A stretch of 64,000 nt of DNA, from NCBI GenBank assembly GCA_018062825.1, contig JAGORL010000001.1:314758-378757 (forward strand), written 5' to 3'. The notes under the pieces were generated by a model. It made no database searches. It was given only the letters and a program-made list of their open reading frames with translations, and was not told the DNA's origin. Origin of the DNA: Patescibacteria group bacterium. Lineage in GTDB: Bacteria; Patescibacteriota; Patescibacteriia; UBA9934. Numbering within the stretch: position 1 is the first letter of the stretch; every line of letters starts with the position of its first letter. This document shows positions 12,171 through 35,353 of this stretch, piece by piece. The position numbers were made by a program, and so were the translations under genes.

Positions 12171-12205
12171 TGATCTCTGGCTCCGATTGCTGAACGGTTC
12201 AGAGC
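12171..12205. repeat. Hairpin-containing repeat A (TCTCTGGCTCC...CTGAACGGTTCAGAGCC), related to repeat B at 13067-13105.
   Basis: Shares an identical TCTCTGGCTCC block and the palindromic CTG(A/G)ACG..TTCAGA with repeat B. The two repeats flank the SGNH hydrolase gene. Confidence 0.4.
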
Positions 12206-12224
12206 CGCAAAATGGATCTTATAA

Positions 12225-12959
12225 TTATTTGATTGGAAATGCGTCCAATTCTTTTGACATCAGAGAGAACCAGTCAGCGTATCCGGCGTCACTCGGATGG
12301 AATTTATCCTCTGCGTAAAGATGCGTAGGATCGAGGGCAAAAGGGTCGAGGGCACGCTCGCGTAGAAGATCGGTATAACGCACCGTTGCAGAATCATGGC
12401 GCGCTACTTCAGCTTTCATGATTTCTCGAATTTTGTATCCTCGTAGCGCAAAAATCCAGCGACTGCCGAAAGGGAAAAGGGGAACGGTGCCAATATCGCC
12501 CGTTGAGGTTACGAGCACGTAATCACCTTTTTCTTTTGCCTGCGCCATAAGTTCAGCAAAATCTTTTGCGAACTCATCATTATTCGTAAAGCGAATAGCA
12601 TCATTGCCTCCAATGTGAATCATCACCAAATCAAAATCAGTTTCTTTGATTTCCGATAACTGCTTAACGGCGTCTCGCATGCGTGCACCACTTACGGATG
12701 CATTCACGATATGAGCGTCCGGATATCGTTTCGCCGTGAGGCCTGCTGGCGAAAATTCAGGCGAGCTCGCTCCAACTCCCACGCCCGTGCTATCGCCAAG
12801 AACAAGAATTTTCAACGTAGCCTGAGGAAGAGGGCGAGAAAAGGGAATAGCACGATCAGAAAGCTCTGTGCCAATGCGGATGAATTGAGTCGTCCGAATA
12901 TATTGAAATAAGATAAACCCGATTCCCGCGACGAGAAGAAAGAACAAGAAAATGCGCAT
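12225..12959 (-). CDS. SGNH/GDSL-family hydrolase with an N-terminal membrane anchor.
   Basis: Block I LVLGDSTG, block III IHIGGNDA and block V DKFHPS. The ATG at 12959 has GAGG 4 nt upstream; the longer 13055 start is less likely. Confidence 0.65.
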   Translation of the reverse strand: MRIFLFFLLVAGIGFILFQYIRTTQFIRIGTELSDRAIPFSRPLPQATLKILVLGDSTGVGVGASSPEFSPAGLTAKRYPDAHIVNASVSGARMRDAVKQLSEIKETDFDLVMIHIGGNDAIRFTNNDEFAKDFAELMAQAKEKGDYVLVTSTGDIGTVPLFPFGSRWIFALRGYKIREIMKAEVARHDSATVRYTDLLRERALDPFALDPTHLYAEDKFHPSDAGYADWFSLMSKELDAFPIK

Positions 12960-13066
12960 ATGCCTCAGTCTAACAACGAGGTTCATATAAATCAACGAAC
13001 ATGATTCGTTGTGTGAGAATACGTAGTTTCCACAAAAGAAAAACCACCACATCACTGTGATGGCTT

Positions 13067-13105
13067 CTCTGGCTCCCTCTACTGGACGCGTTCAGAACTC
13101 TGAAT
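13067..13105. repeat. Hairpin-containing repeat B, lying at the GC transition into the AT-rich island.
   Basis: See repeat A. Followed by the inverted repeat CTGAAT-(9 nt)-ATTCAG at 13100-13120. Confidence 0.35.
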
Positions 13106-13133
13106 TGGCAGGTGATTCAGAAGGAGATTGAAT

Positions 13134-13730
13134 TTAGCGGGATGGCTTCCTACGCTTAATACCAGTTCTGTGTGGCTGCTTACCGTCGAATAATAGTTTA
13201 AGGGAATCTACGACCGAACCTGCTCCTAGGACAATAATGAGAACGCCGTCTATCTTTAGCTTTTCCTTCAAATCCCAGAAAAGCTCCTCAATCAGCTTTA
13301 CGCGTTTCACTAAATAGTCGGGATCAACCATGATCGGTGTATTTACTGGCCAAGAGTCTTTTTCAATAGTGTTGTGAGCTGTATTGAAATGTCCCACCCT
13401 GTTGTACCGAGCCGTCAAAACCTCTTTCGTAGTTGCTTTAATTTTCAGTATCTTCGCGTGATAGTGAAGACGCTGTTTCTCGGAAGGCAACAATCCGCAA
13501 AGAGTAAAAAGCGACGAGGTTTGATCATCTTGATCGAGAAGGTTACTCAATACGTTTACCGCGTCTCTGCTATAAACGTCTGCCATAGATAAGAGGAAAG
13601 CTCCGTGTTCCTTGGCGATCTTTTCTTTTTCATAGATATAGCTCAATACCCCAATGGTTTCTTTGAGTCTATTCAGGGAATCGTTGATGTGATCGGTTAT
13701 ATCCTTTGGACGGAGCTTAGCCTTCGGCAT
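13134..13730 (-). CDS. Hypothetical protein (198 aa), island cargo; contains a possible HEPN-like Rx5H motif (RYNRVGH).
   Basis: AT-rich ORF divergent from 13780-14910. No family recognised. The HEPN suggestion rests on the short motif only. Confidence 0.45.
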   Translation of the reverse strand: MPKAKLRPKDITDHINDSLNRLKETIGVLSYIYEKEKIAKEHGAFLLSMADVYSRDAVNVLSNLLDQDDQTSSLFTLCGLLPSEKQRLHYHAKILKIKATTKEVLTARYNRVGHFNTAHNTIEKDSWPVNTPIMVDPDYLVKRVKLIEELFWDLKEKLKIDGVLIIVLGAGSVVDSLKLLFDGKQPHRTGIKRRKPSR

Positions 13731-13779
13731 ATCTTCTTACTTTACTATTCTTTACTATATCGGGTAAAGTACGCTCATT

Positions 13780-14910
13780 GTGAGCGAAAATGATTCAGAG
13801 ATTAACTTCTTCATTGAAGATTCAAAGCTCTACACTCTTTGGGTTTATTCACGACCCGATTTTTATCCAAGAGAATATTTTGGAATTGGCGAAATCACTC
13901 CTGCACAATACGACCATAAGGCAATTTTTAACTTTCTTAGAATAAGGCTGAAGATGGCCGATGTTCAGTTCAAAAGCTTTAATGCCTACGGCGATAACGA
14001 CTACTCAAAGATGGCTCTCCCACCCACGGATGCTACGCTTAAGGGATGCGATGATAAGCAGAAAAAAGCTATCCTAGCGGCCTGCAAGAAGTTTCGATCT
14101 GAACCATTCGGGTTAAAAGAGATCGACCTTCTACTTCCTTACTATTACAGCTTGTTTGATTATTTTTACTGGCGACCGTCCTTAACATCTACAGAACTGG
14201 CGAAAATTAAAACTCACATAAACGAGTACATTGATTTGTTTCTGAATACGGAACTCTTCGTTTACAACAGAAACTATTTTATTTTCGAAAAACAAAAACA
14301 GGTATTCATTGAACGATTAAGAAAGATGTCCGCTATCGAAAATTTTGGCTCGAATTTTATTGTTAGCGAAACCGCTAAGGGATATGAAAAGACCGAATCA
14401 CAAAACGGTTTCCTCTTCATTCACACGCTATATGCCCTGCAGAAGCTAAACTATATTAGTGTAATACGATTGTGGCATGAACGAACGGATACAGGACACA
14501 CTTTCCATGCAAACATTGTAATTTTTGATACCTTAATCGAGGAAGTAAATAACAGCTACAAGAAGGACAATCCTAAAAACGTTATAGATAAATTTGATGA
14601 AAAGAAAGGCGTTCTAAAGTTCGCTGAGCAGGAGATAGAGCTTTCAAAGAAGGGCAAGCAGACTGATGCGGTTCTTTTAATGAAAACTCTCCTCAAAACT
14701 GAAGGCGACGACTGGAAACACAACGACGAAATATTAACTGATTGGGGCTATAACGACGATGATCAGAAGGGAGTAGCGAAAAACAAGGTCTATTATGCAG
14801 GCCAAAAGATAAATAATGCCGTGGAACTCAAAACAAAGATAGGCGATTTCATTGAGTGCAATACTTCAAAGGCTCGAATCAATCCCAAATATAGAAAAGT
14901 TGATGAATAA
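13780..14910 (+). CDS. Hypothetical protein (376 aa), island cargo.
   Basis: AT-rich ORF followed by a terminator at 14954-14982. No family recognised. Confidence 0.5.
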   Translation: MSENDSEINFFIEDSKLYTLWVYSRPDFYPREYFGIGEITPAQYDHKAIFNFLRIRLKMADVQFKSFNAYGDNDYSKMALPPTDATLKGCDDKQKKAILAACKKFRSEPFGLKEIDLLLPYYYSLFDYFYWRPSLTSTELAKIKTHINEYIDLFLNTELFVYNRNYFIFEKQKQVFIERLRKMSAIENFGSNFIVSETAKGYEKTESQNGFLFIHTLYALQKLNYISVIRLWHERTDTGHTFHANIVIFDTLIEEVNNSYKKDNPKNVIDKFDEKKGVLKFAEQEIELSKKGKQTDAVLLMKTLLKTEGDDWKHNDEILTDWGYNDDDQKGVAKNKVYYAGQKINNAVELKTKIGDFIECNTSKARINPKYRKVDE

Positions 14911-14953
14911 TATATAAACGTCCATCAACATTTACAAATGCCCTGACATTTAC

Positions 14954-14982
14954 CCTGTGGTCAAACCTCAGGGTTTTTGTTA
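14954..14982 (+). terminator. Intrinsic terminator CCCTG-tggtcaaacct-CAGGG followed by TTTTTGTT.
   Basis: 5-bp stem with a T-tract, 44 nt after the stop of gene 13780-14910. Confidence 0.55.
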
Positions 14983-15121: not shown

Positions 15122-16255
15122 ATGATTGATACCGTCTGCCTCCTTATTCCCCTGAACCATGTCGTCTTTCTCGACAAAGCCAATAAAGAGATTCCTGATT
15201 GGGACTTACATTCTAAGACTGAGAACTATCAAAAGTTCGTCAGAAACCCTACAAAAAAGGATAAGGAAAGTGGCCTATATTTTCCACGGATTACACTCTA
15301 TCAAAGACGTTACCAGCGTGAAATCAATGTAAAAATAGAGTTCTCAGCTCCAAAGCTACTGTACGAAAATAATCTTGAAGAGCTAAAGGATTCCGACTTC
15401 GATAAGGTAATTGATCTATTACAGGATCGGCTCAAGCGCATGGGATTAAGGGTCTTCCGTAAGTTCTTAGTTGAAGCCGACGTTTCTTCGATCCATTACT
15501 CCAAAAATATCCTGCTTTCGGATGGCTATACGGCTAGTTATCTGATAGCAGAAATGAGCAAGATTGATCTAAGAAAGAGCTTCGATTTTGCCCGTGCTCG
15601 CTACATCAATGACGGTCAAAGCCTGTGCGCCCATACCTCATCTCACGAGCTAGTCATATACGACAAGGTAGCCGATTTGAATAAGGGCAAGAAAAGGGCA
15701 ATTGACCGAGATCGAACCCCGTATCAAACGAGTCTATTCGCCGACTTGAAGAACGCGAAGAAGCTGATAGAAATCTTGCGGTTTGAAATTCGGCTCGGTA
15801 AAAAAGAGAAAATTAAGAGCCTACTCCTGAAATTAGGTCATCAAAAAAAGGTTGCCTTTGCCGAGATGTTCAATACAAGGCTTAGCCAGCAGGTAGTAAC
15901 CCACTATTGGGAAAAGATTATCAGCGCAAAAACCAACGGTCTATTCATTATTCCACCAACACATAAAGACCTGTTACGAGAGATCTACCGAGTTCAACCA
16001 GAGGTCAAACCTAGCCGCGCGTTCTATCTAGTCGGCTTATCTGCATTAGCAAAGGACGGAAACGGTATACGAGAGCTGAGGAGTATCCTTACAGGCAAGA
16101 CAAACGCAAGGACTTGGTATCGGATAATCAAGGATCATCGTGATTTTTCCAAGGCTATTTCAGCAAGCAAAGTCAGAGATTGGGTTTATCAGATAGATCA
16201 ATCCCTAAAGAAGTATGAGCCACTAACACGTTCCACATACGAAATTGCTGTGTAA
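15122..16255 (+). CDS. Rep_trans-family rolling-circle replication initiation protein.
   Basis: Signature blocks ...SSHELVIYDK... (the RIYDK-like block) and ...EILRFEIRLGKK... (the R.E.EL block), as in pT181 RepC and ICE/phage Rep_trans proteins. Confidence 0.5.
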   Translation: MIDTVCLLIPLNHVVFLDKANKEIPDWDLHSKTENYQKFVRNPTKKDKESGLYFPRITLYQRRYQREINVKIEFSAPKLLYENNLEELKDSDFDKVIDLLQDRLKRMGLRVFRKFLVEADVSSIHYSKNILLSDGYTASYLIAEMSKIDLRKSFDFARARYINDGQSLCAHTSSHELVIYDKVADLNKGKKRAIDRDRTPYQTSLFADLKNAKKLIEILRFEIRLGKKEKIKSLLLKLGHQKKVAFAEMFNTRLSQQVVTHYWEKIISAKTNGLFIIPPTHKDLLREIYRVQPEVKPSRAFYLVGLSALAKDGNGIRELRSILTGKTNARTWYRIIKDHRDFSKAISASKVRDWVYQIDQSLKKYEPLTRSTYEIAV

Positions 16256-16285: not shown

Positions 16286-16468
16286 ATGCACACGGAAGAA
16301 AGTAAATTCTATACATCTCAAGAACTTTCAAAAGTCTTGAAAGTCAATATCATGACCATTTATCGCTATATTAAGGCTGGCAAGTTACAGGCTTATAAAA
16401 TAGGCAAAGAATATCGAATTGCTGAAACTGAGTTTACAAGGTTTTTGAATGAAGCTAGCACCGAATAA
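16286..16468 (+). CDS. xis: Excisionase-family helix-turn-helix DNA-binding protein (HTH_17 / Xis-like).
   Basis: Classic pattern over 60 aa: YTSQELSKVLKVNIMTIYRYIKAGKLQAYKIGKEYRIAETEFTRFL. Confidence 0.7.
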   Translation: MHTEESKFYTSQELSKVLKVNIMTIYRYIKAGKLQAYKIGKEYRIAETEFTRFLNEASTE

Positions 16469-16471
16469 TCT

Positions 16472-17443
16472 ATGGAGGAAAAACTACGAGCAAAAAACAA
16501 CAGAACAACCTTCGTTAGAAGTGAAGAAGTCTTGGAATTGAAGAAAAAGATAGTATCAGGAGATCAGCTGACAAGCGATATTTATAACAAGACGATCTGG
16601 GGGAGGCTTGAAGACGTTACTGTGAAAATCCCTGAGGGGGTTGTTGATCTCCTATTCATCGATCCGCCGTACAACCTAAATAAGGACTTCGGCAATAATA
16701 AATTCCGTGAACTTTCAGGCGATGACTATCAAGTTGTTTTTGAAAAATGGCTACTATCAATAATGCACACCTTAAAGAAGAACGCCTCGGTGTATGTTTG
16801 TTGCGATTGGAAAAGTTCCCCAATGATCTTTAATGTTTTAGATAAGCATCTCAAAGTACGAAATCGCATTACTTGGGAACGCGAAAAAGGGAGGGGGGCT
16901 TTGAGTAATTGGAAGAATTGCTCAGAGGATATTTGGTTCGCTACAGTCTCTGATGATTATAAATTTAACGTTGAGGCCGTAAAACTAAAGAAAAAAGTCA
17001 TCGCACCATACAAAGAAAACGGTCTAGCAAAAGACTGGGCAGAAGAAAGTGACGGAAAATTTAGATTAACTCATCCTTCGAATCTTTGGACGGACATCAC
17101 TATTCCATTTTGGTCGATGCCAGAAAATACTGACCATCCTACACAAAAACCAGAAAAATTAGTCGCAAAAATACTGCTTGCTTCAACACATAAGGATGAT
17201 GTTGTACTCGATCCCTTTCTGGGATCAGGTACGACATCCGTTGTTGCAAAAAAATTAGGAAGGAAATATATCGGCATTGAAATGAACGAAGAATATTGCT
17301 GTCTCGCAGAAAAACGTATTGCTATGGTTGATAAGAATCCGACTATACAAGGGTATCTAGATGGGGTCTTCTGGGAAAGAAATTCTCTAATTGAACAAAA
17401 AGATTCCAACGGAAGCACGGCCTTTAATGCAACGCTTATATGA
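16472..17443 (+). CDS. Type II DNA methyltransferase, beta class (motif IV DPPY precedes motif I); probably an N6-adenine MTase, N4-cytosine not excluded.
   Basis: DLLFIDPPYN (motif IV) comes first, with DPFLGSGTT (motif I, FxGxG) near the C-terminus. This is the circularly permuted beta order of PF01555-type methylases. Confidence 0.8.
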   Translation: MEEKLRAKNNRTTFVRSEEVLELKKKIVSGDQLTSDIYNKTIWGRLEDVTVKIPEGVVDLLFIDPPYNLNKDFGNNKFRELSGDDYQVVFEKWLLSIMHTLKKNASVYVCCDWKSSPMIFNVLDKHLKVRNRITWEREKGRGALSNWKNCSEDIWFATVSDDYKFNVEAVKLKKKVIAPYKENGLAKDWAEESDGKFRLTHPSNLWTDITIPFWSMPENTDHPTQKPEKLVAKILLASTHKDDVVLDPFLGSGTTSVVAKKLGRKYIGIEMNEEYCCLAEKRIAMVDKNPTIQGYLDGVFWERNSLIEQKDSNGSTAFNATLI

Positions 17444-18603
17444 TCGATGATGAAGTGTTAGATTTGATAGCCTTTCTAAAGGCCAAAGATGGCATAGGCA
17501 ATAAAGCTTCTCTAATGAAGGCTGTGTTGGATCAATTTAGATTAACGAAAGATCGATCTGTTTACTACTCTGAACATCTTGCTATTCGTTTTAGCTCATC
17601 GGGATCAACGAGTTTTTCTAACACCGTACTCTCCCTATCAAATCTCCAGAAATTCGACGAACTTCCATTCTTGGTGTGTCTCGTCACTCCAAATACAAAT
17701 GTTATTTACCTAGCAAACTCAACATTCCTTATAAAAATTAGTCACAGTTCGCAACAATTACGGATCGACAATATCCGTGGAAGCTTCAACGGTTCAGATA
17801 TTTGCAAAGTATTTAATGACCTACCGAACTCACCCGAAAACTTTGAAAAGCTATTTGCCATTCATGAAGAATTGGGCTTTGCTGAGAATCTTCCCCGTCT
17901 CGTTGAAGCGACGACTGGTATTGTTCCTTCAGGGAAGAAGTTTGATGTTTCGAACGAAGGAAAAAAGATGATTTTATCAGCTCCCGAAAGAGCGGTCGAG
18001 TTCATCAACTCAAGTGAATACATCGAGTTAAAGACCCATCTAGACGAGATGGTTGCACGTTACAAAGATGAAATCCTGATTGCAGGATTCATTGAAAACG
18101 TAAATATACGAGGAAGAATAATCGAATACCTTATCGCAGGCGAAGACGAAGAATTACGAGCTACACTAGTTAGTGAACTACGCAAGGAAGGTAGCAAGGT
18201 CTCACGCTTCGCAACGAAAAACGACTTAGGCGATTATGTTCGCATTTTTGACAAATTTCATACCGCAACAGATGTTAAGACAAAAATCATGGTCTTAAAA
18301 TCAAATCCAAAAGCCTACAACATCGATAAAATTCTGCATTTTCTTACGCATGAAAAAAGTGTTTTCATGTTTTATTTCATTGGAATTGAGCCTAACAAGA
18401 TCGTCGCACAAGTGCTGGTTTCTGTGTTCCAAAAAGACCTACTCAGGTCAACCATTCTCTTGAAACATTGGGCTGGCAGAAACTCACGAGGTGTTACTCA
18501 ATTCGAAGGTGAAACTATCCATAAACTAATCCTCTCATCAAATAATGATATCGACCTTAAGGAAAGTAAAAAATTCCTCAGAGAGTTGATTGAGCTGGTT
18601 TGA
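17440..18603 (+). CDS. Putative cognate Type II restriction endonuclease (387 aa, no recognisable motif).
   Basis: The start overlaps the MTase stop (ATGA), which suggests co-transcription. Its size and position fit an R subunit. The sequence itself gives no family assignment. Confidence 0.4.
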   Translation: MIDDEVLDLIAFLKAKDGIGNKASLMKAVLDQFRLTKDRSVYYSEHLAIRFSSSGSTSFSNTVLSLSNLQKFDELPFLVCLVTPNTNVIYLANSTFLIKISHSSQQLRIDNIRGSFNGSDICKVFNDLPNSPENFEKLFAIHEELGFAENLPRLVEATTGIVPSGKKFDVSNEGKKMILSAPERAVEFINSSEYIELKTHLDEMVARYKDEILIAGFIENVNIRGRIIEYLIAGEDEELRATLVSELRKEGSKVSRFATKNDLGDYVRIFDKFHTATDVKTKIMVLKSNPKAYNIDKILHFLTHEKSVFMFYFIGIEPNKIVAQVLVSVFQKDLLRSTILLKHWAGRNSRGVTQFEGETIHKLILSSNNDIDLKESKKFLRELIELV

Positions 18604-18616
18604 ATTGGTCGTCCTT

Positions 18617-20175
18617 ATGAAAGCCGTAATTCTTGCTCGGGTTTCAACTGAAGAGCAGAAGGATGCAGGAAACTCTCTTCCTGCACAGATTGAGCGTATT
18701 CAATCTTACTGCCAAAGAAAAGGATTCGCCGTAGCAGAGGTATTTAGCTTTGATGAAAGCGCATATAAAACTAAACGTGATGAGTTCGATAAGATTTTAG
18801 AGTTCCTAGAAAAGACCACAGAAAAGATTGCAGTTTGTTTCGATAAAGTTGATAGGCTCTCACGCAACGTTTTTGATAAACGTGTTTCCACGCTCTACGA
18901 AAAGGCAGTCAACGATCAGATTGAGCTTCACTTTGTCTCAGACGGACAGATCATCAATAATCAAATGTCGGCCGTAGAAAAGTTTCAGTTCGGCATGAGC
19001 TTGGGATTGGCTAAATACTATTCAGATGCTATCAGCGATAACGTAGTACGGGCATTTGAACAAAAAAGACGTGATGGTGAAATTACTGGTCGCTGTCGGA
19101 TCGGCTACATCAATGCCCTTGACCCAATGGGCAATAAAACTGTCTCCCCCGATCCTGACAGATCGCACTTGGTAATAAAGATTTTCGAGATGTACGGTAC
19201 AGGCAATCACTCAATGAAGACTATTCTTGAAGACCTTACCAAAGCTGGGTTGCGAAGTAGGGATGGTTTTAAGCTCTCGAAAAGCAGTATTGAGAACATC
19301 CTACGGGAACCTTTTTATCACGGGATCGCTCGATCCAAGAAATATAATCAAGACTATCCGCACAAGTACGAACGGTTGATCAGTAAAGAGCTTTTTGACC
19401 GTTGCCAAAAAATCAGACTAACCAGAAAGAAGGAGCCATATAAAGCTCTCTCTAAAGATTTCATTTTCAAAGGCCTACTTCGTTGCCAAAACTGCAATTG
19501 CACGATGACCCCTGAAATCAAAAAGGGACGCTTTATTTACTATTCCTGTACCAACTCCAAGGGACAATGCAAGCGGGTCTATGTGCCAGAGAATCAGCTC
19601 CTAAAGCCCGTATACGACGTTCTGAGCCGTTTGTCTGGTATCTCAGAAGGAATACAGAACCTTCTCGTTACAGAGCTTCGTAAGACCACAGAAGCCGAGG
19701 TAGCCTTTCATCAGGCTCAGCTTGGACGTATTCGAAATGAGCAGGATCAGTTTACTAAGCGAAAGGACGCTTTGCTCGACTACCTTCTCGACCAGAGTAT
19801 TACTAAGGAATTACTAAGGATCAGTATGACAAGAAACTGCAAGAGATCATGGACAGGCTTCAGACCCTCAGCCTTGAATTAGAAGAACATTCACGGGCTG
19901 ACTATGATTATCAAACTACAGTAGCTACGGTACTTTCCCTTGCTCGTCGGGCAAAGGATATTTTCGATAGTTCTGAAAACCACGAAAAGAGAGCCTTTAT
20001 AAACTATCTCATTCAGAACCCAACCGTAGCAGGTAAGGAACTTGTCTTTAACCTCAGAAAGCCTTTTGATTTAGTGCTAAATCTTGCAGATGAACAAAAA
20101 AAGACGGTCAACGTTTCCGCTGATCGTCCTTCTTGGCTCGGGGGGTGGGGATCGAACCCACGGCCAATTGGTTAA
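18617..20175 (+). pseudogene. Large serine recombinase (resolvase/invertase N-domain plus recombinase and zinc-ribbon domains), frameshifted by an 11-bp tandem duplication at 19799-19820. The 3' end overlaps tRNA-Asn.
   Basis: N-terminus AVILARVSTEEQ (catalytic Ser). Central recombinase domain and a Cys-rich motif (CQNCNCTM...C). The reading frame switches to the +2 frame (ORF 19849-20175) exactly at the duplicated ATTACTAAGGA. Deleting one copy restores ...LDQSITKDQYDKKLQEIMDRLQTL... Confidence 0.75.
19799..19820 (+). repeat. Exact 11-bp tandem duplication (ATTACTAAGGA x2) that frameshifts the serine recombinase.
   Basis: Direct reading of the sequence: tATTACTAAGGAATTACTAAGGAtcag. Confidence 0.9.
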
Positions 20176-20208
20176 CAGCCAACTGCTCTGCCGCTGAGCT
20201 ACCCCCGA
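20134..20208 (-). tRNA. tRNA-Asn (anticodon GUU), 75 nt, with CCA encoded.
   Basis: Minus-strand read: UCGGGGG-UA-GCUC-AGCGGCA-GAGC-A-GUUGG-CUGUUAA-CCAAU-UGGCC-GUGGG-UUCGAUC-CCCAC-CCCCCGA-G-CCA. All stems pair. U1-A72 and G73 are as in bacterial tRNA-Asn. Confidence 0.9.
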
Positions 20209-24460: not shown

Positions 24461-27400
24461 CTACTGCATGAGTCGACCTGGGCCAAGTGGGTCGTAACCG
24501 TACTTCACCTCAATGCCGTCATCGTAGCCATCACCATCTGTGTCACGTTTCCTAGGATCGGTTTGCATCATGAGCTCTGTTTGATCCCAGAGGCCATCGC
24601 CGTCGGTATCAATCTCGAGCATGAATGGTGCGGTACCTGGGCCAAGTGGATCATAGCCACTGCGCACTTCAAGACCGTCATCATAACCGTCATCGTCACT
24701 GTCAGTACTTGTTGGATCAGTACCCATGAGGCGCTCGATAGCGTCACGCAGGCCATCGCCGTCATAGTCGGCATTGAGAAGCGTTGGGTTGAGTCCAGGA
24801 CCAAGCGGATTGTAGCCATTGAGAAGCTCGATCTGGTCATTGTAACCATCGTCATCTGAGTCTGGGTTAGCAAGATCAAGACCAAGGAATGATTCTTCGT
24901 GATCAGCAACACCGTCTTCGTCGTAGTCGGTGGTGATAACGATGCGCTCAGGGAAGGAAAGATCAACGATCTTGTCACTACCAACCGCAAGGTGAGAATC
25001 ATGCCACAAGATGGTGTCTACCTTTGGCTGGCCCTCGTAGTACACAGCCATACCAATCTGGTGGTGCCACGAGGCTTCCATTGGGCGAACCGAGATGGTA
25101 ACGCTCAAGCAAGCACGTGGATCAACGTCGATCACAACGTCATCGTAGTCAAAGTCTGTTCCTTTGTCTTCAATGCCGTAGATCAGTGTTTCTCGCTCCG
25201 TACGAGTAACCGTAGCGTATTCAGAGAAGGCACTACGCTTGGTACCGTCCGGATTAATAATGTACAGGTCGTAGGTGATTGCCTGGTTGAGTGCTGCTCG
25301 GCGATACATGTGCTGCGCTGCGAGGAAATCCTCGTAGCCAGTGATGTCTGTGCCAAACGTGACGTCAAAGGTGTCTTGCGGGAACAGGGTGATCACATAG
25401 TCATACCACTCATCACCAAAGTTCGCTTCTGCGGCTTCCTCAGTTGCAAGCCAGCGCAGGGTGGCGGTTCCGGTATTGGCGCCATCGTCGGTAATAACGT
25501 AGACGCGCGGGCTTTCCGGGAACTTTACAAGAACCGAGTAAGCGCGAGGGAACATGAGTCCACCTGGAGTAGCTGCTGCAATGATTTCATCAGCAACGTA
25601 GGTGAAGGTACCGCAGCCATCTGAGTAACTTAGATAGGATTGCAAGTCAGGGAATGCGCGCAGCGTGCCGTCTTCTGTAATGAAGTACACAGCACTGTCA
25701 TCTTCGGTTCGTACAAACTGTTCGTTGCCATACTCAGGAATTTCTGGATCGGTAGGCGTCTCTGGGTCAGGAGTCACAGGTGAGGAACAGTCGGTAGTGG
25801 TATCTACCGTAATCGTATCGGTAAGTACCGTAGAGGTTGCGCCACTTGTGCTCTTGAACCGCACATACACCGTGCGGGTGCCGTCACCCGTATCAAGAAG
25901 GGTCCAGGGAACTGTCATGGTGTAAATCTTCTTGCCGTCGGTGCCGGTTGGGGTAGGGGCGTCCTCATCCGCCACGAAGGCTGTCCAAGTTGAGCCTGCA
26001 AATGAACTATCGTTTGAGATCGTCACCTCGCTGGCGTTCGAAGCCTTCAGGGTGAGGGTTGCTAGTGGATCAGGCGTACATGGGTCACCAAGGTCAATGA
26101 TAACCGAGGCGTTACTCGTTTGAACCGGAGAAGGTCCACCTCCGCCACCGCCTCCACCTCCGCCACCGCCTGAAGTGTCGTTATCAATAACGCTCACGGC
26201 CTCGTTGCTGATTGAGATGTCGTCATAATCAAGATCTGCTGAGGCGGCGGAATGGGTAAAGATAGTTGCTTCTGGTGAGCTTTCATCTGTTCCGTCGTCA
26301 ACCGCGGTAACTGTCACGGTTTGTGGCGTATCCCAGTTAAGTGCAGTGAAGACAAGCGACGTGTCATCTGCGGTAGCATCGGCATTCTCGGTGATAGTGA
26401 TGGTAACGTCTGCCGTCGGCTCTGTATCAAGAACAATCGTGTAGGTGTCGGTTGCGCCACCCTCAGTCACTTCTGAGGAAAGAGGGGAGACAGTCACTCC
26501 AGGCGTTGGTCCACCACCGGCGGCAGTGAAGTCGATACGTTCAACGACTGGACCGGCGCTAGTCTGGGTGTTGTTGTAAAGCGTAATGGCAATGTCTAGT
26601 GTATTTGTTGTAACAGCAGAGAAGCCATTAGCATGCGACCACTCGGACTCAGTCAGTCCTTCTACAAAAGCGCTATCCATTGGGCTGTTGCCGCTTTCTA
26701 CAGTGCCAAGTGAAATAGCGGCCTGCATGGTGTTGTCAGGTGAAGCAACCCAGATACCGGCATCATAGTAGTACCAATTACCATCAACGCCACCGTGATC
26801 TGCGGCAAGTCGAGAGGCGATCGTTTGCCAGCCGCCATCATGAACGACGAATGAATCGCGATCATCAAATGAGAAGCTGTAGTATGCGGCATTAACCTCA
26901 GCTGATGTGAAGTCAACGACATCCACCATAGAGATGCCGCTCCATGAGCTTACGTCTTCTTGACCAGCATCAGTGGTGACAACGGTGTAATACCTGGCGT
27001 ATGGGGAGTAATCTTCATCGAAGTGAAAAAGCGTCTCGTAAGTGGAATAGTACATGTCTGCTCCGCTGAATTCCGCAGAAAGAACGCCTGAGAACTGATG
27101 CTCGTCAGTAAGGGTGAGGTCGTCTATCCACTGTTCGCCAAGTCCTCCGGCATTCATTGAGGCGGTAAAGACACGTGTATCGTCACTAATGGCGATATCT
27201 GCAAGTCCGCCACCGATAACGGTATTTCCCGTCCAAAAACTCAGATCAAGCGGATCAATGACAAGTCCGTCAGCTAGTTCATCAAGTTCATTGAATATCA
27301 GTACTGCCTCAAAGATTGGATCGTACTCAATCACGTGTTCGTAGGAGAAGTAAAATGGCAGTTCAATGAGCGATGCTTCCACTGTTCCTCCAATCGGAGC

Positions 27401-30400
27401 AAGAGTGGTGGCGTCAAAACGTGCGATAGCAAAACCATTATTAACAACAACCCAAAACTCATCATTAATCGGCTCGTAAGTAAGGTAGCGAGCCTCCCAT
27501 GATCCCTGAGAAGGGTCATGCCCGCTAATAGTGAAGGCAAGCGACTGCGTATCGTCGATGGATCCATCGACAGGATCAATTAACATGAGTTCATTGGAGA
27601 AATACGTGGTAGCAACCATCTGATCAATATCAGCAAAATAGTAGATGCTATTGATGTCGGAGACAGGGTAGGTAGCAAAGAGTGTGCCAGTGGTGGCATT
27701 GTAAACATCAACTTCATCATACTGCTTGACCCACACACGCTCACGCACGGTATCAATGGCAAAATCAAAGCTTTCACCAAAAAGATCAACCTCAAGATCG
27801 ATAGCGTAGAGCTCGGTGTCTGTATCTGGATCAATGGCACTGAGCGATGCATTTTCAGAGAAGCTATAACCACGAAGTACCCAGAGCACACCGTCATTCG
27901 GGTTCACTTTAATGTCAGCGATCTGTGAACTACCCTCCCCGGCGCCACCTTCAAAAGTAGTATAGCCAGCTACTGTTAGCCCGACATCATCATTGGTAAG
28001 TTCAAGAAGGCCTGTTTCAAGTGACGTACAGAATATCTCCTCGAGAGTGCCGCCTGTATCAGGATATGGAGCCGCTTCACCTGGGTCAGCGCCAACGCTT
28101 GAAGCATCATCGAGCGTGGCATATTGATCGCCATCAATATACTGATGACAAGAGGGAAGGTGCTTTACTTCAGAAGTTACATCCTCATGCGCCCATTCGC
28201 TAGTGCTATCGAAGTCAAAAACAGCAGTCCCGCCATCATTGTCGGCGTTGATCATGAGGAGATCCGCAGGATCAAAGCCATTGTATCGAGTGTCCGCGGA
28301 CGTAGCGGCACCGAGGGTGACGGTGTACTCAATGCCCGCATCGTTGAGGAGGTCATTTTGACCGGTAACAGTGATCGTTTGCGCAACGTTCCAGTTAGCA
28401 GGGGTGAAGGTAAGTGATGACGGGCTCACTGTTCCCTCGGACGTATCTGTAGAGGAAACAGCAATGGTGACGTTGGCGGTTGGCGATCCTGACAGTACAA
28501 CATCAATTTCATGAGTACCTCCAGCCTCTGTTGTAGAGCCAAAATTTTGAATCGGTAAAATAAAACCAGGGTAGTTGAAGATAATCCCAGAAGTATTGCC
28601 ACTGTCGGCGCAGCCAATGTGACACTGAATATCTGTGCCACTTATTTGGTCAATATCTTGGATGTCAGCATGGTGAAGCATGACGGTGCCAAGTGGTTCA
28701 AAGTTTGCGGGCACGCCAGGCGTTGCGGATGCAAATTGAAGCTTCGGTGTAGGCGTATCATTTGCGATGCCCTTGGTTCGAAAATCACCATTCACCGTGA
28801 AGGTATCGCCTGCTGTTATAAGAAGTTCATTATCAGTATTCGTTTCCCAATAAACTTCAAAATCATTTACCTCGATATCGCCAGTGATGACGTGAGAAAC
28901 GGTAGACGGTCCATTAACGTTACGCTTCATGGATATGTAGCCACTCGTGGTATCAAATGTTGCCGAGGCACCCTTGCTCAAACTATCAGAAATAATAATG
29001 AGTCCGTCGCCGGCATCAAAGCTACCATCGGTAATAAGAAGACTACCGCCAATATCGAGCGTTTCACCGGTTCCAGGGCCGTTAGCTGATGCTGAGGCGT
29101 TATTCAGCTGAAGGCCAGGTAAGTAAGCGATGGTGTTGGCGTAGTCGAGCGTAAGCGTTGTTGCTCCGGAGATGCGAATCAAGCCGGTACCTCCAAAGCC
29201 GACTATCTGCCCAATATTTGCATCAAGCACAACGGTATCTCCGGAAACAGCAACAGTTCCGTCGTTAAGCGTTCCTCCATCCATCATGAAGGAATTTTCA
29301 ACGTTGACAGTATCTCCGGTACCGATATTGGTGGCACCAAAGCTTTTATCAATGTGAAAATCGTAGAGATCGATCGAGTTAACAACATCGATGTCAATTT
29401 GATTGTTACCATCAACGACAAGTGAACCGTTGTTGTGCATGAAAGTCGCGTCATCGCTTATGGATAATCCAGAGGTTCCAAACTGCGCAGAGATATACAT
29501 GGTCGCCGATGGCGCAGTGAATGCCGCGTCTCCCGACAATGTGACGTCACCATTGTTGAAATCAAGGTTTCCGGCGCCACCAGTAAAGGTACCGGTAGTC
29601 ATGGTAAGCGGTCCATCAAAAAGAACGGTGCCAGAGGATGGTCCTACTATTTCACGAGTGGAATCTACGATGAGTTCTGGCATTTGACCGTTGCCAACAA
29701 GCGTAATGTCACTCGCGCCATTTGTAACGTGAATCTGACCGCCACCTCCATCAAAAGTACTGGAATGGATGAGGTCGCCAGATGTAACTTCAAGAACAAT
29801 GTTGCAAAGGTTACCGTTCGTAAGGGTGAGCGTACCAAAGATGACCCACGTTGGGCCGTCACCAGATGACAAACAGTCAATGTCGGAATCCCAAGCAACC
29901 GTAATGCTATCGAATGTTGGATCGGGATTGATGAGCGATGTCCCGCCATTGCCATCAAAGATAATCGTGCCAGTATCAGGATCAAAGTTCACGAACTCAT
30001 CAACAGCTGTAATTGATTCTAATGTTAGATTACTTGTAGGTATAGTAAAACCGGCGGTGTCAGTGAGTACTAAGTCATGAATAATGGTGAGATTGCCGGC
30101 GTCACCAATGAATGTGCCGTCACTCATTATAAAATCATTATCAATTTGTACGGTGCCAGAAGACGGACCAAGGATGTTACGGTCAACACTTAAGTTTATA
30201 GTTGGCATGAAGCCACCAGGAACGAGGACAATATCGGTGCTGCCGGCAGTAATAGTAAGAGTGCCGCCATTGCTTTCACCGCCATCAAAGGTGGCAGTAT
30301 GTACAATCTCAGCTTGAGCCTCAATCGTACCGGTGCTGATATTGCCGTTTGTGAGCGTGAGTTCGCCAGTGACAATCAGGGTGTCGCCGCTTGAAACAAT

Positions 30401-31012
30401 AAGAAAAATGTTCGATCCGACCATGGCTAATTCCATGTCGTTAAAAGTCTCCGTAACGTTCACGTTCACGGTGCGATTTGCTGAGCCGTCAAACTCAAAC
30501 TTACCGCTATTATGATTGAATATGCCGCCCGCGGTATGGGTAAAGTTATTATCAATGAAAAATGTGCCCGAAGTTGAGGTAAACGTACCTCCAGCTAAAG
30601 TAAACGTACCATTGAGGTCAATATCTGTAGTGCCTCCAAGGAACGTTCCAGCATCCTGAGCAAAATTTCCACTACCAATAGTAAGTGTTGCACCAAGGCT
30701 ATTGGTAATAGTGCCCGAATACCCAGAGTTGATATCAATACCCTGAATGCTACCGGTAAAAGTAGCATCAATGGTGGCATCTTTTGAGGAAGTGCCATCA
30801 AAGGTAGCGACATCGCCAGCGCCTGGCTCGGTATCGCTGCTCCAGTTTGCGTCCTCGCTCCAGTTGTTGGTAGCGCCGCCACCATCCCAGGTGCGAACTG
30901 CGGCAAAAGCCCCAGTTGGAGCAAGGAGTACAAGGCCAAAGACAGCACCGAGCCCAGCGAGAATTGCGAGGCGAAGGGTGGGTAAAAGGCGGGGGGAGAA
31001 AGATGACATCAT
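24461..31012 (-). CDS. Giant secreted cell-surface repeat protein (2183 aa): N-terminal signal peptide, beta-helix-like Gly/Thr-rich repeats, two Calx-beta-like domains, a Gly12 run, and C-terminal thrombospondin type-3 calcium-binding repeats.
   Basis: Signal peptide ...LLAPTGAFAA. Calx-beta-like segments end ...INADNDGG and ...VIDNDTSGGGGGGGGGGGG. TSP3-like repeats include DSDDDGYNDQIELLNGYNPLGPG, DSDDDGYDDGLEV and DTDGDGYDDGIEV. AAGAGG RBS. Confidence 0.7.
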   Translation of the reverse strand: MMSSFSPRLLPTLRLAILAGLGAVFGLVLLAPTGAFAAVRTWDGGGATNNWSEDANWSSDTEPGAGDVATFDGTSSKDATIDATFTGSIQGIDINSGYSGTITNSLGATLTIGSGNFAQDAGTFLGGTTDIDLNGTFTLAGGTFTSTSGTFFIDNNFTHTAGGIFNHNSGKFEFDGSANRTVNVNVTETFNDMELAMVGSNIFLIVSSGDTLIVTGELTLTNGNISTGTIEAQAEIVHTATFDGGESNGGTLTITAGSTDIVLVPGGFMPTINLSVDRNILGPSSGTVQIDNDFIMSDGTFIGDAGNLTIIHDLVLTDTAGFTIPTSNLTLESITAVDEFVNFDPDTGTIIFDGNGGTSLINPDPTFDSITVAWDSDIDCLSSGDGPTWVIFGTLTLTNGNLCNIVLEVTSGDLIHSSTFDGGGGQIHVTNGASDITLVGNGQMPELIVDSTREIVGPSSGTVLFDGPLTMTTGTFTGGAGNLDFNNGDVTLSGDAAFTAPSATMYISAQFGTSGLSISDDATFMHNNGSLVVDGNNQIDIDVVNSIDLYDFHIDKSFGATNIGTGDTVNVENSFMMDGGTLNDGTVAVSGDTVVLDANIGQIVGFGGTGLIRISGATTLTLDYANTIAYLPGLQLNNASASANGPGTGETLDIGGSLLITDGSFDAGDGLIIISDSLSKGASATFDTTSGYISMKRNVNGPSTVSHVITGDIEVNDFEVYWETNTDNELLITAGDTFTVNGDFRTKGIANDTPTPKLQFASATPGVPANFEPLGTVMLHHADIQDIDQISGTDIQCHIGCADSGNTSGIIFNYPGFILPIQNFGSTTEAGGTHEIDVVLSGSPTANVTIAVSSTDTSEGTVSPSSLTFTPANWNVAQTITVTGQNDLLNDAGIEYTVTLGAATSADTRYNGFDPADLLMINADNDGGTAVFDFDSTSEWAHEDVTSEVKHLPSCHQYIDGDQYATLDDASSVGADPGEAAPYPDTGGTLEEIFCTSLETGLLELTNDDVGLTVAGYTTFEGGAGEGSSQIADIKVNPNDGVLWVLRGYSFSENASLSAIDPDTDTELYAIDLEVDLFGESFDFAIDTVRERVWVKQYDEVDVYNATTGTLFATYPVSDINSIYYFADIDQMVATTYFSNELMLIDPVDGSIDDTQSLAFTISGHDPSQGSWEARYLTYEPINDEFWVVVNNGFAIARFDATTLAPIGGTVEASLIELPFYFSYEHVIEYDPIFEAVLIFNELDELADGLVIDPLDLSFWTGNTVIGGGLADIAISDDTRVFTASMNAGGLGEQWIDDLTLTDEHQFSGVLSAEFSGADMYYSTYETLFHFDEDYSPYARYYTVVTTDAGQEDVSSWSGISMVDVVDFTSAEVNAAYYSFSFDDRDSFVVHDGGWQTIASRLAADHGGVDGNWYYYDAGIWVASPDNTMQAAISLGTVESGNSPMDSAFVEGLTESEWSHANGFSAVTTNTLDIAITLYNNTQTSAGPVVERIDFTAAGGGPTPGVTVSPLSSEVTEGGATDTYTIVLDTEPTADVTITITENADATADDTSLVFTALNWDTPQTVTVTAVDDGTDESSPEATIFTHSAASADLDYDDISISNEAVSVIDNDTSGGGGGGGGGGGGPSPVQTSNASVIIDLGDPCTPDPLATLTLKASNASEVTISNDSSFAGSTWTAFVADEDAPTPTGTDGKKIYTMTVPWTLLDTGDGTRTVYVRFKSTSGATSTVLTDTITVDTTTDCSSPVTPDPETPTDPEIPEYGNEQFVRTEDDSAVYFITEDGTLRAFPDLQSYLSYSDGCGTFTYVADEIIAAATPGGLMFPRAYSVLVKFPESPRVYVITDDGANTGTATLRWLATEEAAEANFGDEWYDYVITLFPQDTFDVTFGTDITGYEDFLAAQHMYRRAALNQAITYDLYIINPDGTKRSAFSEYATVTRTERETLIYGIEDKGTDFDYDDVVIDVDPRACLSVTISVRPMEASWHHQIGMAVYYEGQPKVDTILWHDSHLAVGSDKIVDLSFPERIVITTDYDEDGVADHEESFLGLDLANPDSDDDGYNDQIELLNGYNPLGPGLNPTLLNADYDGDGLRDAIERLMGTDPTSTDSDDDGYDDGLEVRSGYDPLGPGTAPFMLEIDTDGDGLWDQTELMMQTDPRKRDTDGDGYDDGIEVKYGYDPLGPGRLMQ

Positions 31013-33936: not shown

Positions 33937-34466
33937 TGGAGTTCTGGGTCATCGCTGCCGCGATCGCTACGATGGGCCTCGTGCTTGTCGTGTCGATCAC
34001 GATCGCTGCCGCCGCACTCATGTTCCTCTGGCGGCGGTTCACGGAAGGTGTCATGAGGGGTTTTGGCCTGGCGTACATGCCAATGCGGCAAGATTCCCCA
34101 CAGGAGCGAGCCTCGGCTCGGCTCGGTGAGGTGATGATTCCGCTGCGGCAAGAGTCTGCTGCGCCACGCCCAAGGACGGTGTCCCGTCTGGCTGGTGATC
34201 ACAAGCCTGCGCGCCCCCGGCTTGTGCCACAGGCGGTGGACGAAGACCGCACGAAGACGGTCGCCTTCTCACGCTACAACGCCGAAGACGACCAGGACAC
34301 CGAGAGCGACGAAGGTGGCCCGCGCAGCTGGAAGGCTGACGCGAACGACGGCCGTTCCAACATCTCGCTTGAAGGGGACATCACGCCCAGGCCCGCAGCC
34401 GGGCGCAAGGTGCTCCCGTTCACGCCCCCGACGAACTCCTTCCACGACCTGTTCCGGAGGAAGTGA
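33937..34466 (+). CDS. Hypothetical membrane-anchored protein (176 aa) in a GC-rich islet.
   Basis: GGAGG RBS 5 nt before the ATG. N-terminal TM helix followed by a low-complexity tail. Terminator at 34494-34530. Confidence 0.45.
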
Positions 34467-34493
34467 TTGCATTGCCCGCGCCCGGGAGATGCC

Positions 34494-34530
34494 AGGCCCC
34501 TCGTACTCAAGCGAGGGGTTTATTGTTTCT
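34494..34530 (+). terminator. Intrinsic terminator GCCCCTCG-tactcaag-CGAGGGG followed by TTTATTGTTTCT.
   Basis: Read directly from the sequence. Confidence 0.65.
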
Positions 34531-34585
34531 ATCGTGCACTTTACTCTTTTAACGTTACTCTTTAATCTACCCGCGGAGGTGCCCC

Positions 34586-35353
34586 ATGTCTGTTTGGCAT
34601 GCACGGTCAAAGTGCCCCGTGTGCGCAGGCACGGGGGAGAACGCCAGTTCGCCACTCAAGATCTGCGACGTCTGCTTGAGTCTTGGGTACATGTACAAGC
34701 CAAGCGCGGCCTTTCGAGAGCTCGGGCAAGCACTATGCGAGCGCCTGCGGTTTCTCGAGAAGACTACGCCGCCCTTGCCGATCGCGATTGTGATCGACGA
34801 AGTGACCGAGATCGATCGCCTCATTCGCGGCCTCGACGCCGAGACCGATCCGAACAGCACGATTATCGACTCACTCGCGAACGATATCCGCAACGGTCAG
34901 TTACGGCGCTATCTGCAGGAGCTCAAGAAGAAGCGCGATGAGGCGATCATCGACCTCCAGCTCCAGGTGGCGCTCCTGCCGCGTGAGCTCGGACAAGCGG
35001 TGATCCAAGCAGCACGCGGTCAGTACGCGGACGCCGAGCTCTTGTTTGCGAAGGCGCTACGCAAGTACGAGGAGGAAGCGGTGGTGCACTACCACTACGG
35101 CATGTACCTCATGTGCTACAAGCGCAAGTACAGGGAAGCACTCTGGCAACTGGAGAGCGCGGTACGCATCAATACACAAAGTCGAGCTGCTATTTACCTC
35201 GCCGCCGCCGACTGCGCGAGTGAAGTAGGTAGCCACAGCAAGGCTGAGATGTATTACGTGATGTGCACGATCGCTGATGACTTCGACGAACTCGACGAAG
35301 ACACGCAGCGTCGTGTCGAGTTCGTCGCTCGCGGCGACGGCATCGTCAACTAG
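34586..35353 (+). CDS. Hypothetical protein with an N-terminal zinc-ribbon (CPVC...CDVC) and a C-terminal TPR-like helical region, in a GC-rich islet.
   Basis: GGAGGTG RBS. CxxC-(18 aa)-CxxC arrangement. ~62% GC. Confidence 0.5.
   Translation: MSVWHARSKCPVCAGTGENASSPLKICDVCLSLGYMYKPSAAFRELGQALCERLRFLEKTTPPLPIAIVIDEVTEIDRLIRGLDAETDPNSTIIDSLANDIRNGQLRRYLQELKKKRDEAIIDLQLQVALLPRELGQAVIQAARGQYADAELLFAKALRKYEEEAVVHYHYGMYLMCYKRKYREALWQLESAVRINTQSRAAIYLAAADCASEVGSHSKAEMYYVMCTIADDFDELDEDTQRRVEFVARGDGIVN

Follow-up and report, generated by a model that had tools for sequence, protein, structure and literature searches.

Among described systems, the closest to the locus studied here are integrative mobilizable elements and small islands of Firmicutes, which carry a serine recombinase, an excisionase-type helix-turn-helix (HTH) protein and an initiator or relaxase of the Rep_trans type. 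Mobile forms of restriction-modification (R-M) systems and defence islands on integrative elements such as pipolins and phage satellites combine a compact backbone with exchangeable bays for R-M or abortive-infection (Abi) genes. Within the HEPN proteins, AbiU2 is listed as a family that keeps the Rx4-6H motif and occurs in R-M operons (Anantharaman et al. 2013, PMC3710099). We analysed a stretch of 64,000 nucleotides, called the window below, from a Patescibacteria group bacterium (GenBank assembly GCA_018062825.1, contig JAGORL010000001.1, forward-strand positions 314,758 to 378,757). An earlier note on this DNA had pointed to two divergent genes beside an R-M module, here named A (198 amino acids, aa) and B (376 aa), and had proposed them as a candidate defence or anti-defence pair. 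Our analysis makes it likely that A and B are instead unrelated neighbours in one integrative element, A being a HEPN cargo gene of the AbiU2 branch and B the first gene of the backbone.

Both genes were found where the earlier note had placed them. They can be regarded as real genes because both have many homologues, and the GTG start of gene B is supported by homologues that cover 97-100% of its full length. The co-occurrence of A and B was checked in 38 fetched loci by tblastn, with gene tables in addition for part of the A-family loci (labels L001-L037 denote fetched related loci; P0127 and P0137 are members of the gene A family). A tblastn search with A as the query was negative in all 27 loci that had been fetched for a B homologue. 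An A homologue was absent from 11 distinct loci in which B is followed by a small open reading frame (ORF S) and by protein C, as well as from about 10 loci of a second architecture described below. Reciprocally, B was absent from 6 distinct A-family contexts. Because A never accompanies B in the other loci examined, nor B A, the two genes are considered as cargo and backbone, respectively, and not as a pair. If A and B formed a defence or anti-defence system of two genes, with joint regulation from the 49-bp spacer between them, this would account for their divergent adjacency, for the similar TAAAGT boxes before both starts and for the vicinity of both genes to the R-M module on a mobile island. 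However, the slot of A is occupied by unrelated genes, or is empty, in other elements, and the lack of co-occurrence in the fetched loci largely refutes the idea, so that we regard such a system as highly improbable. Nothing in the analysis points to the anti-defence role that had been envisaged for A or B.

The family of gene A was then identified through its homologues. Direct scans of the window proteins against Pfam, PADLOC, PHROGs and NCBIfam (E<=0.001) gave no match for either the A or the B protein, in agreement with the earlier note, which had recognised no family for them. A single-sequence search with gene A retrieved two relatives only, RNxxVAHFNT being common to all three proteins. 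The profile made from these three A-type proteins retrieved 54 proteins of 189-224 aa (E 1e-45 to 1e-89), and the size of the family, at least 54 proteins of about 190-220 aa, is a lower bound. The Pfam family HEPN_AbiU2 was matched by 30/54 of these members at E<=0.01. Two of them, P0127 (28.4 bits) and P0137 (27.8 bits), passed the curated cut-off of this family (gathering score 26.8 bits). These two proteins are 36-40% identical to gene A over nearly the full length, with pairwise E values of 4e-31 and 5e-37. Since such close homologues exceed the cut-off, gene A was assigned to HEPN_AbiU2 (PF18734). Judged from these profile comparisons, gene A adds a new, divergent member to a known family, in an AbiU2 branch that reaches into Patescibacteria. 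An exact database copy of the A protein carries the label "Patescibacteria group bacterium".

The sequence RYNRVGH, which the earlier note had speculatively related to the HEPN spacing, corresponds to residues 108-114 of gene A and has the Rx4-6H form (R108-YNRVG-H114). R108 and H114 are invariant across the 54 homologues, as are D51, Y53, S54, R55, S72 and S73. The speculation is therefore borne out by the conservation of these residues and by the HEPN_AbiU2 matches. The AlphaFold model of gene A is all-helical (predicted local distance difference test, pLDDT, 82.8). Several results weigh against the HEPN assignment. Gene A itself has no Pfam HEPN match even at E<=10 and no PADLOC match, and comparison of its family with PADLOC gave scattered noise only. 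Foldseek matches of gene A in the PDB were non-significant, HEPN structures appearing at E 1.2-1.8 among generic helical bundles, and the model is least confident at the motif region, residues 113-117. The gene A profile had no match among PDB sequences; tblastn of gene A and P0127 against plasmids and an IMG/VR scan for gene A were also negative. Overall, the hidden Markov model searches placed A in HEPN_AbiU2 by way of its homologues, and Foldseek gave no significant structure match for A or for B.

Relatives of gene A adjoin type I, type III and type IIG R-M systems, a ThsB_TIR-like gene and SLFN-type helicases, and also DUF2779, DUF3800 and RelB/ParE pairs. These neighbourhoods fit the published description of AbiU2 (PMC3710099). 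No constant neighbour was found across the 6 distinct contexts of A-family genes, and gene A is called solo because the family loci show no fixed partner. Upstream neighbours of 161 aa in L001 and L037 were considered as a fixed partner of the family and rejected, being mutually unrelated; a DUF5677 neighbour showed no relation to gene A on comparison. No minimal nucleotidyltransferase (MNT) antitoxin was seen next to gene A, either in the window or in related A-family loci. An AbiUi-type partner was likewise not seen, the flanks of gene A being the left-end motif and B, and PADLOC giving no Abi matches; this was judged from the neighbours and from PADLOC, without direct comparison to an AbiUi sequence.

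Gene A thus resembles AbiUii (AbiU2) of the Lactococcus lactis AbiU locus, the founder of PF18734, in its all-helical nature, its size of about 190 aa, its R-x5-H motif and its R-M company (PMC3710099), but differs in being too divergent for a direct model match and in having no AbiUi-type partner. AbiV, AbiD/F, AbiJ and the HepT of MntA-HepT share with it the predicted Rx4-6H RNase chemistry and the location in mobile or defence islands beside R-M genes (PMC3710099). In contrast to them, gene A has neither an MNT antitoxin nor a fixed partner, and its structural matches to HepT and HEPN proteins (E 1.2-1.8) are non-significant.

By analogy with other HEPN proteins, we infer that gene A encodes a metal-independent RNase acting as a dimer, in which the active site would be formed from the invariant R108-x5-H114. 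Once triggered, the enzyme would cleave host or invader RNA. The outcome would be either protection of the abortive-infection type or the action of an addiction-type toxin backing the R-M system of the element. Gene A is taken as a solo HEPN gene, probably for an RNase toxin or cargo of the abortive-infection type, and with the defence-type neighbours of its relatives the label of defence-type cargo seems reasonable. A point against this role is that lactococcal AbiUii, the only AbiU2 protein assayed, gave no resistance and reduced the resistance due to AbiUi (PMC13064643). This reduction also favours another explanation, in which gene A is not an antiphage effector but a modulator like AbiUii, or an addiction-type toxin that stabilises the element by post-segregational killing. 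HEPN domains are indeed common toxins of toxin-antitoxin systems (PMC3710099), and RelB/ParE pairs occur near gene A relatives. However, A-family genes have no conserved antitoxin-like partner, their neighbours differ at every locus, and the window has no MNT-type gene, which argues against an addiction toxin. We consider this explanation unlikely.

The position of B in a recurrent gene order identifies the element to which both genes belong. Its features are listed in Table 1. From left to right, the left-end motif and variable cargo on the minus strand precede B, which is followed by a conserved non-coding block, a 47-aa ORF, C, an HTH_17 protein, an R-M system and a large serine recombinase overlapping a tRNA gene. 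The succession of B, small ORF, C homologue, HTH_17, cargo, large serine recombinase and tRNA was observed in 11 distinct loci, the order recurring in L008, L009, L011, L012, L013, L015, L018, L031, L033 and L034. At every locus with a visible end, the last 12-40 nt of the recombinase ORF lie within the target tRNA gene, at its 3' end. This overlap is seen in 7 loci, namely the window (20134-20175), L008, L009, L011, L012, L013 and L034, and the target is tRNA-Asn, tRNA-Asp or tRNA-His. The GC content of the island is about 0.38-0.44 as compared to about 0.5 around it, and the low-GC stretch ends at the tRNA-Asn gene (20134-20208). These sequence features delineate one integrative element of about 7 kb, from about 13.07 to about 20.14 kb, in a Patescibacteria genome, and agree with the earlier description of an island with R-M genes beside a tRNA gene.

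Table 1. Features of the integrative element (positions in the window)
Feature	Position	Strand	Remarks
Left-end (attL-like) motif GCTCCCTCTACTGGACGCGTTCAGAACTCTGAATTGG	13072..13108	+	preceded by TGGCTC, which also occurs at the tRNA-Asn 3' end
Gene A, 198 aa, ATG start; solo HEPN (AbiU2-family), R108-x5-H114	13134..13730	-	sole gene in the left cargo slot
Divergent spacer, 49 bp; TAAAGT (-10-like) boxes before both start codons	13731..13779	.	sequence reading
Gene B, 376 aa, GTG start; conserved backbone protein	13780..14910	+	homologues, model, gene order
Conserved non-coding block after B	14911..14981	+	runs to the ATG of the next ORF; kept after B in both architectures
CAACATTTACAAA within the block after B	14926-14938	+	motif conservation
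Hairpin within the block after B, then T-run	14953-14973	+	single-sequence folds
ORF S, 47 aa	14982..15125	+	ATGA overlap with the start of C; small ORF of 48-55 aa called here in related elements
Protein C, 377 aa, backbone; possibly a Rep_trans-like initiator or relaxase (weak evidence)	15122..16255	+	adjoins B in 11 distinct loci
Protein H, 60 aa, HTH_17 / excisionase-like	16286..16468	+	PHROG matches; homologues annotated PF12728 at the same position
Type II R-M: N6/N4 DNA methyltransferase	16472-17443	+	Pfam N6_N4_Mtase 4.6e-45; PADLOC MTase_II 6.8e-63
Type II R-M: restriction endonuclease	17440-18603	+	PADLOC REase_II 1.1e-149
Large serine recombinase, split in two frames	18590..20175	+	Pfam Resolvase, Recombinase, Zn_ribbon_recom; 3' end overlaps the tRNA
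tRNA-Asn (GTT), integration target, right end of the element	20134..20208	-	ARAGORN

On the left side, seven other distinct elements (L008, L009, L013, L015, L018, L025 and L033) have the 37-nt motif of the window (<=11 mismatches in 37) bordering their left cargo on the outside, and the TGGCTC core recurs at the tRNA end (20134-20139). A search for long direct repeats linking the tRNA end to the left part of the elements was negative, and the ends were defined by the shared motif for this reason. Such a repeat is not expected for serine recombinases. Two points weigh against the proposed boundaries: the ends were deduced from the shared motif and not from an empty site, and about 890 bp further left, at about 12177-12215, the left-end motif occurs a second time in a weaker form. 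A GDSL-lipase gene (12225-13055) sits between the two copies. The second copy could have been left by an earlier insertion, or could itself mark the true outer end.

In the window, the recombinase gene is split by an 11-bp tandem duplication at 19799-19820 (ATTACTAAGGA x2). Removal of one copy restores a single ORF of 525 aa, and recombinase homologues are single ORFs of 490-510 aa. The element may have been immobilised by this duplication, or the split may reflect an assembly error. Protein H matched PHROG excisionase and DNA-binding families with E values from 6e-9 to 3e-6.

Protein C gave no family match in the direct scans, its profile had no match among PDB sequences, and tblastn against plasmids was negative. 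The alignment of C homologues shows the motifs MIDT, EFSxPKLLyxNN, HxSKNI, YDK and RFEIRL. Of these, MIDT, EFSxPKLL, YDK and RFEIRL resemble, by eye only, those of Rep_trans/gpII-type initiators, and Pfam Rep_trans (PF02486) was matched by 1/10 C members at E 0.015, below the cut-off. From these motifs, C is possibly a Rep_trans-like rolling-circle initiator or relaxase. A C homologue in a Peribacteria metagenome-assembled genome (L018, 1523-2605) contains 5 in-frame stop codons under table 11, which may indicate stop-codon recoding in this lineage, or a pseudogene. The 47-aa ORF and the 377-aa C are, like A and B, without a family match, and the earlier statement that A and B were the only island genes outside mobility and R-M functions does not stand. 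The view of both genes as cargo is retained for gene A and abandoned for gene B, which occupies a fixed position in the backbone of an element family.

Two bays of the element have variable contents. The left bay, from the left-end motif to B, contains 0-6.8 kb of unrelated minus-strand genes across elements. In the window it holds only gene A; elsewhere, it holds a type IIG R-M system plus copper-resistance genes, DUF2779, DUF3800, Peptidase_M78, or nothing. The second bay, between HTH_17 and the recombinase, was compared in nine elements, among them the window (16472-18603), L009, L011, L012, L013, L031, L033 and L034. A different R-M system was present in 8/9 elements, and the kinds include type II, type III and type IIG-like systems, Dcm+HpaII, MvaI/BcnI, and PLD-SNF2 plus MmeI-like systems. 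As nearly all copies compared have an R-M system of their own in this bay, the element appears as a natural shuttle for R-M and HEPN genes.

B also occurs in a second architecture, observed in Saccharibacteria and Paceibacterota at about 10 loci (L016, L017, L019-L024, L026 and L027). There, the order is B, a ParB_N-methyltransferase, a methyltransferase, an HTH protein of about 125 aa, a 69-aa ORF and a protein of about 490 aa. C is absent from this architecture, and a serine recombinase is sometimes found nearby.

More than 130 homologues of gene B, of about 370-395 aa, were collected. Among 22 genome loci with gene B, 21 are labelled Patescibacteria, with several classes represented; the lineages include Nomura-, Kaiser- and Saccharibacteria, Peribacteria, Paceibacterota, Gracilibacteria, Uhrbacteria and Minisyncoccia. 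A B homologue with 29% identity lies at 6074-7207 of L032, near a serine recombinase and a tRNA-Ala gene, on a contig binned as Gammaproteobacteria. This could correspond to misbinning or to transfer outside Patescibacteria. No B was detected by tblastn against plasmids and phages or in the IMG/VR scan. In the structural model of gene B (pLDDT 93.1; predicted template modelling score, pTM, 0.87), a helical part at the N-terminus is followed by a middle domain of the alpha/beta type and by a C-terminal domain with the order beta3-alpha-beta2. Conservation is by far highest in the C-terminal ~110 aa of the protein, and the N-terminal part is variable.

In the spacer between the two divergent genes, A (minus strand) and B (plus strand), each start codon has a TAAAGT box resembling a -10 element 8-9 nt upstream of it. 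Read from the sequence, this suggests back-to-back promoters giving leaderless mRNAs for A and B. Boxes of the type AGTAAAGT / TGGTAAAAT are present 6-9 nt before the B start in L009, L012 and the type-2 loci. On the other side of B, the stop codon is followed by a conserved CAACATTTACAAA block and then by a hairpin. With the -10-like box before its start and the hairpin plus T-run after its stop, B appears to be transcribed as a separate unit. Of the 14 matches to the CAACATTTACAAA motif in the 558 kb of DNA that were fetched, 12 lie directly after a B stop, in both architectures, and the block is therefore considered to travel with B rather than with C. The stem sequences of the hairpin vary among elements while the pairing is kept, indicating covariation, and the T-run abuts the next ATG. 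RNAalifold applied to the spacer between B and S predicted no pairs, because indels in the loop misalign the hairpin arms, and single-sequence folds show the hairpin. The conserved block could act as a terminator, an operator or an origin.

The association of a very conserved B domain with a very conserved DNA block suggests sequence-specific recognition. Our guess, made with low confidence, is that B may bind DNA and act as a regulator or initiator through the block next to it. Its C-terminal ~110 residues would bind the block after the stop, or the promoter spacer, and B would control the downstream operon, consisting of the 47-aa ORF, the Rep-like protein, the excisionase-like HTH protein, the R-M system and the recombinase. 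Alternatively, B would start replication at the conserved block. Several results weigh against DNA binding. Scanning 99 B homologues singly against Pfam yielded no recurrent family, and the B profile had no match among PDB sequences. With Foldseek, the best PDB match was ALBA1 at E 0.056 over about 108 columns, which is not significant, and nothing was obtained below E 0.01 in BFVD. Gene B is not basic, with a pI of 6.7 overall and 7.9 for the C-terminal domain. An OmpR/PhoB-type winged helix was considered for the C-terminus and rejected, which counts on the same side: no Trans_reg_C match was found in the 99 members, hhalign against the C-terminal domains of PhoB and OmpR (sequences entered by hand) gave a probability <1%, and no such PDB entries appeared in the Foldseek top 50. 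The sole resemblance to OmpR/PhoB is the beta3-alpha3/4-beta2 order in the model. Since no family or fold was matched and the protein is not basic, what points to DNA binding by B is this order of secondary structures together with the co-conserved DNA block.

The conserved block also bears on what kind of protein B is. Were B the replication initiator of the element, with the block after its stop as the origin, C would be a relaxase or an accessory factor. The block tracks B and not C, being present after B in the second architecture where C is missing; its sequence is AT-rich and contains CATTTAC repeatedly as well as a hairpin, and the B model shows two helix-plus-beta-hairpin regions. However, B resembles neither a Rep family nor an initiator of solved structure, the block has no clear iteron array, and a hairpin followed by a T-run resembles an ordinary intrinsic terminator. 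We hold this reading of B, with the block as origin and C in a secondary role, to be rather unlikely. A further explanation is that B does not bind DNA but is an anti-defence, establishment or exclusion protein expressed first on entry. This would suit a monocistronic, possibly leaderless gene at the edge of the element and a non-basic protein with a variable N-terminal and a constant C-terminal part, common to two element types that both carry DNA methyltransferases. But B matches no PADLOC model and no viral protein in BFVD, and DNA recognition more readily explains why B is so strongly co-conserved with the DNA block beside it. This second explanation is quite improbable, and recognition of the block by B is kept as the working idea.

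As compared to the integrative mobilizable elements of Firmicutes, the element has in common an end integrase by the target, a small Xis-like HTH protein, a candidate Rep_trans-like protein, cargo bays and a tRNA target. The differences are that no family could be detected for B, C or the 47-aa ORF, that the 3' end of the tRNA gene is overlapped by the recombinase ORF itself, that the hosts are Patescibacteria, and that R-M systems nearly always make up the cargo between HTH and recombinase. Unlike pipolins and phage satellites, which share the compact backbone and the exchangeable R-M/Abi bays, the element has no PolB, no capsid or packaging genes and no tyrosine integrase. By its proteins, no counterpart of the element was found in the IMG/VR, phage or plasmid collections. 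A literature search for such elements in Patescibacteria or Saccharibacteria found no description in the library searched. In terms of its gene content, the element is thus an integrative island with defence cargo, known in kind, whose backbone proteins match no described family.

Elsewhere in the window, the segment 3793-4971 is GC-rich (0.66) and has long ORFs in both orientations, a 2183-aa ORF occupies 24461-31012, and a further GC spike (0.62) is located at 34001-35000.

Patescibacteria have tiny genomes, few of them are cultured, and the mobile elements that move their defence genes are barely described. In this context, gene A alone is a modest result, and more interest attaches to the element family with its backbone gene B. 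We tentatively propose, at somewhat less than even confidence, that B and its DNA block form the signature module of an undescribed, Patescibacteria-wide element family with at least two architectures, shuttling R-M and abortive-infection genes, in which B would have a new fold and act as master regulator or replication initiator. The compact element recurs across reduced, episymbiotic bacteria, where it targets tRNA genes by means of a serine recombinase. Its integrase, attachment sites and regulator could serve as genetic tools for Patescibacteria.

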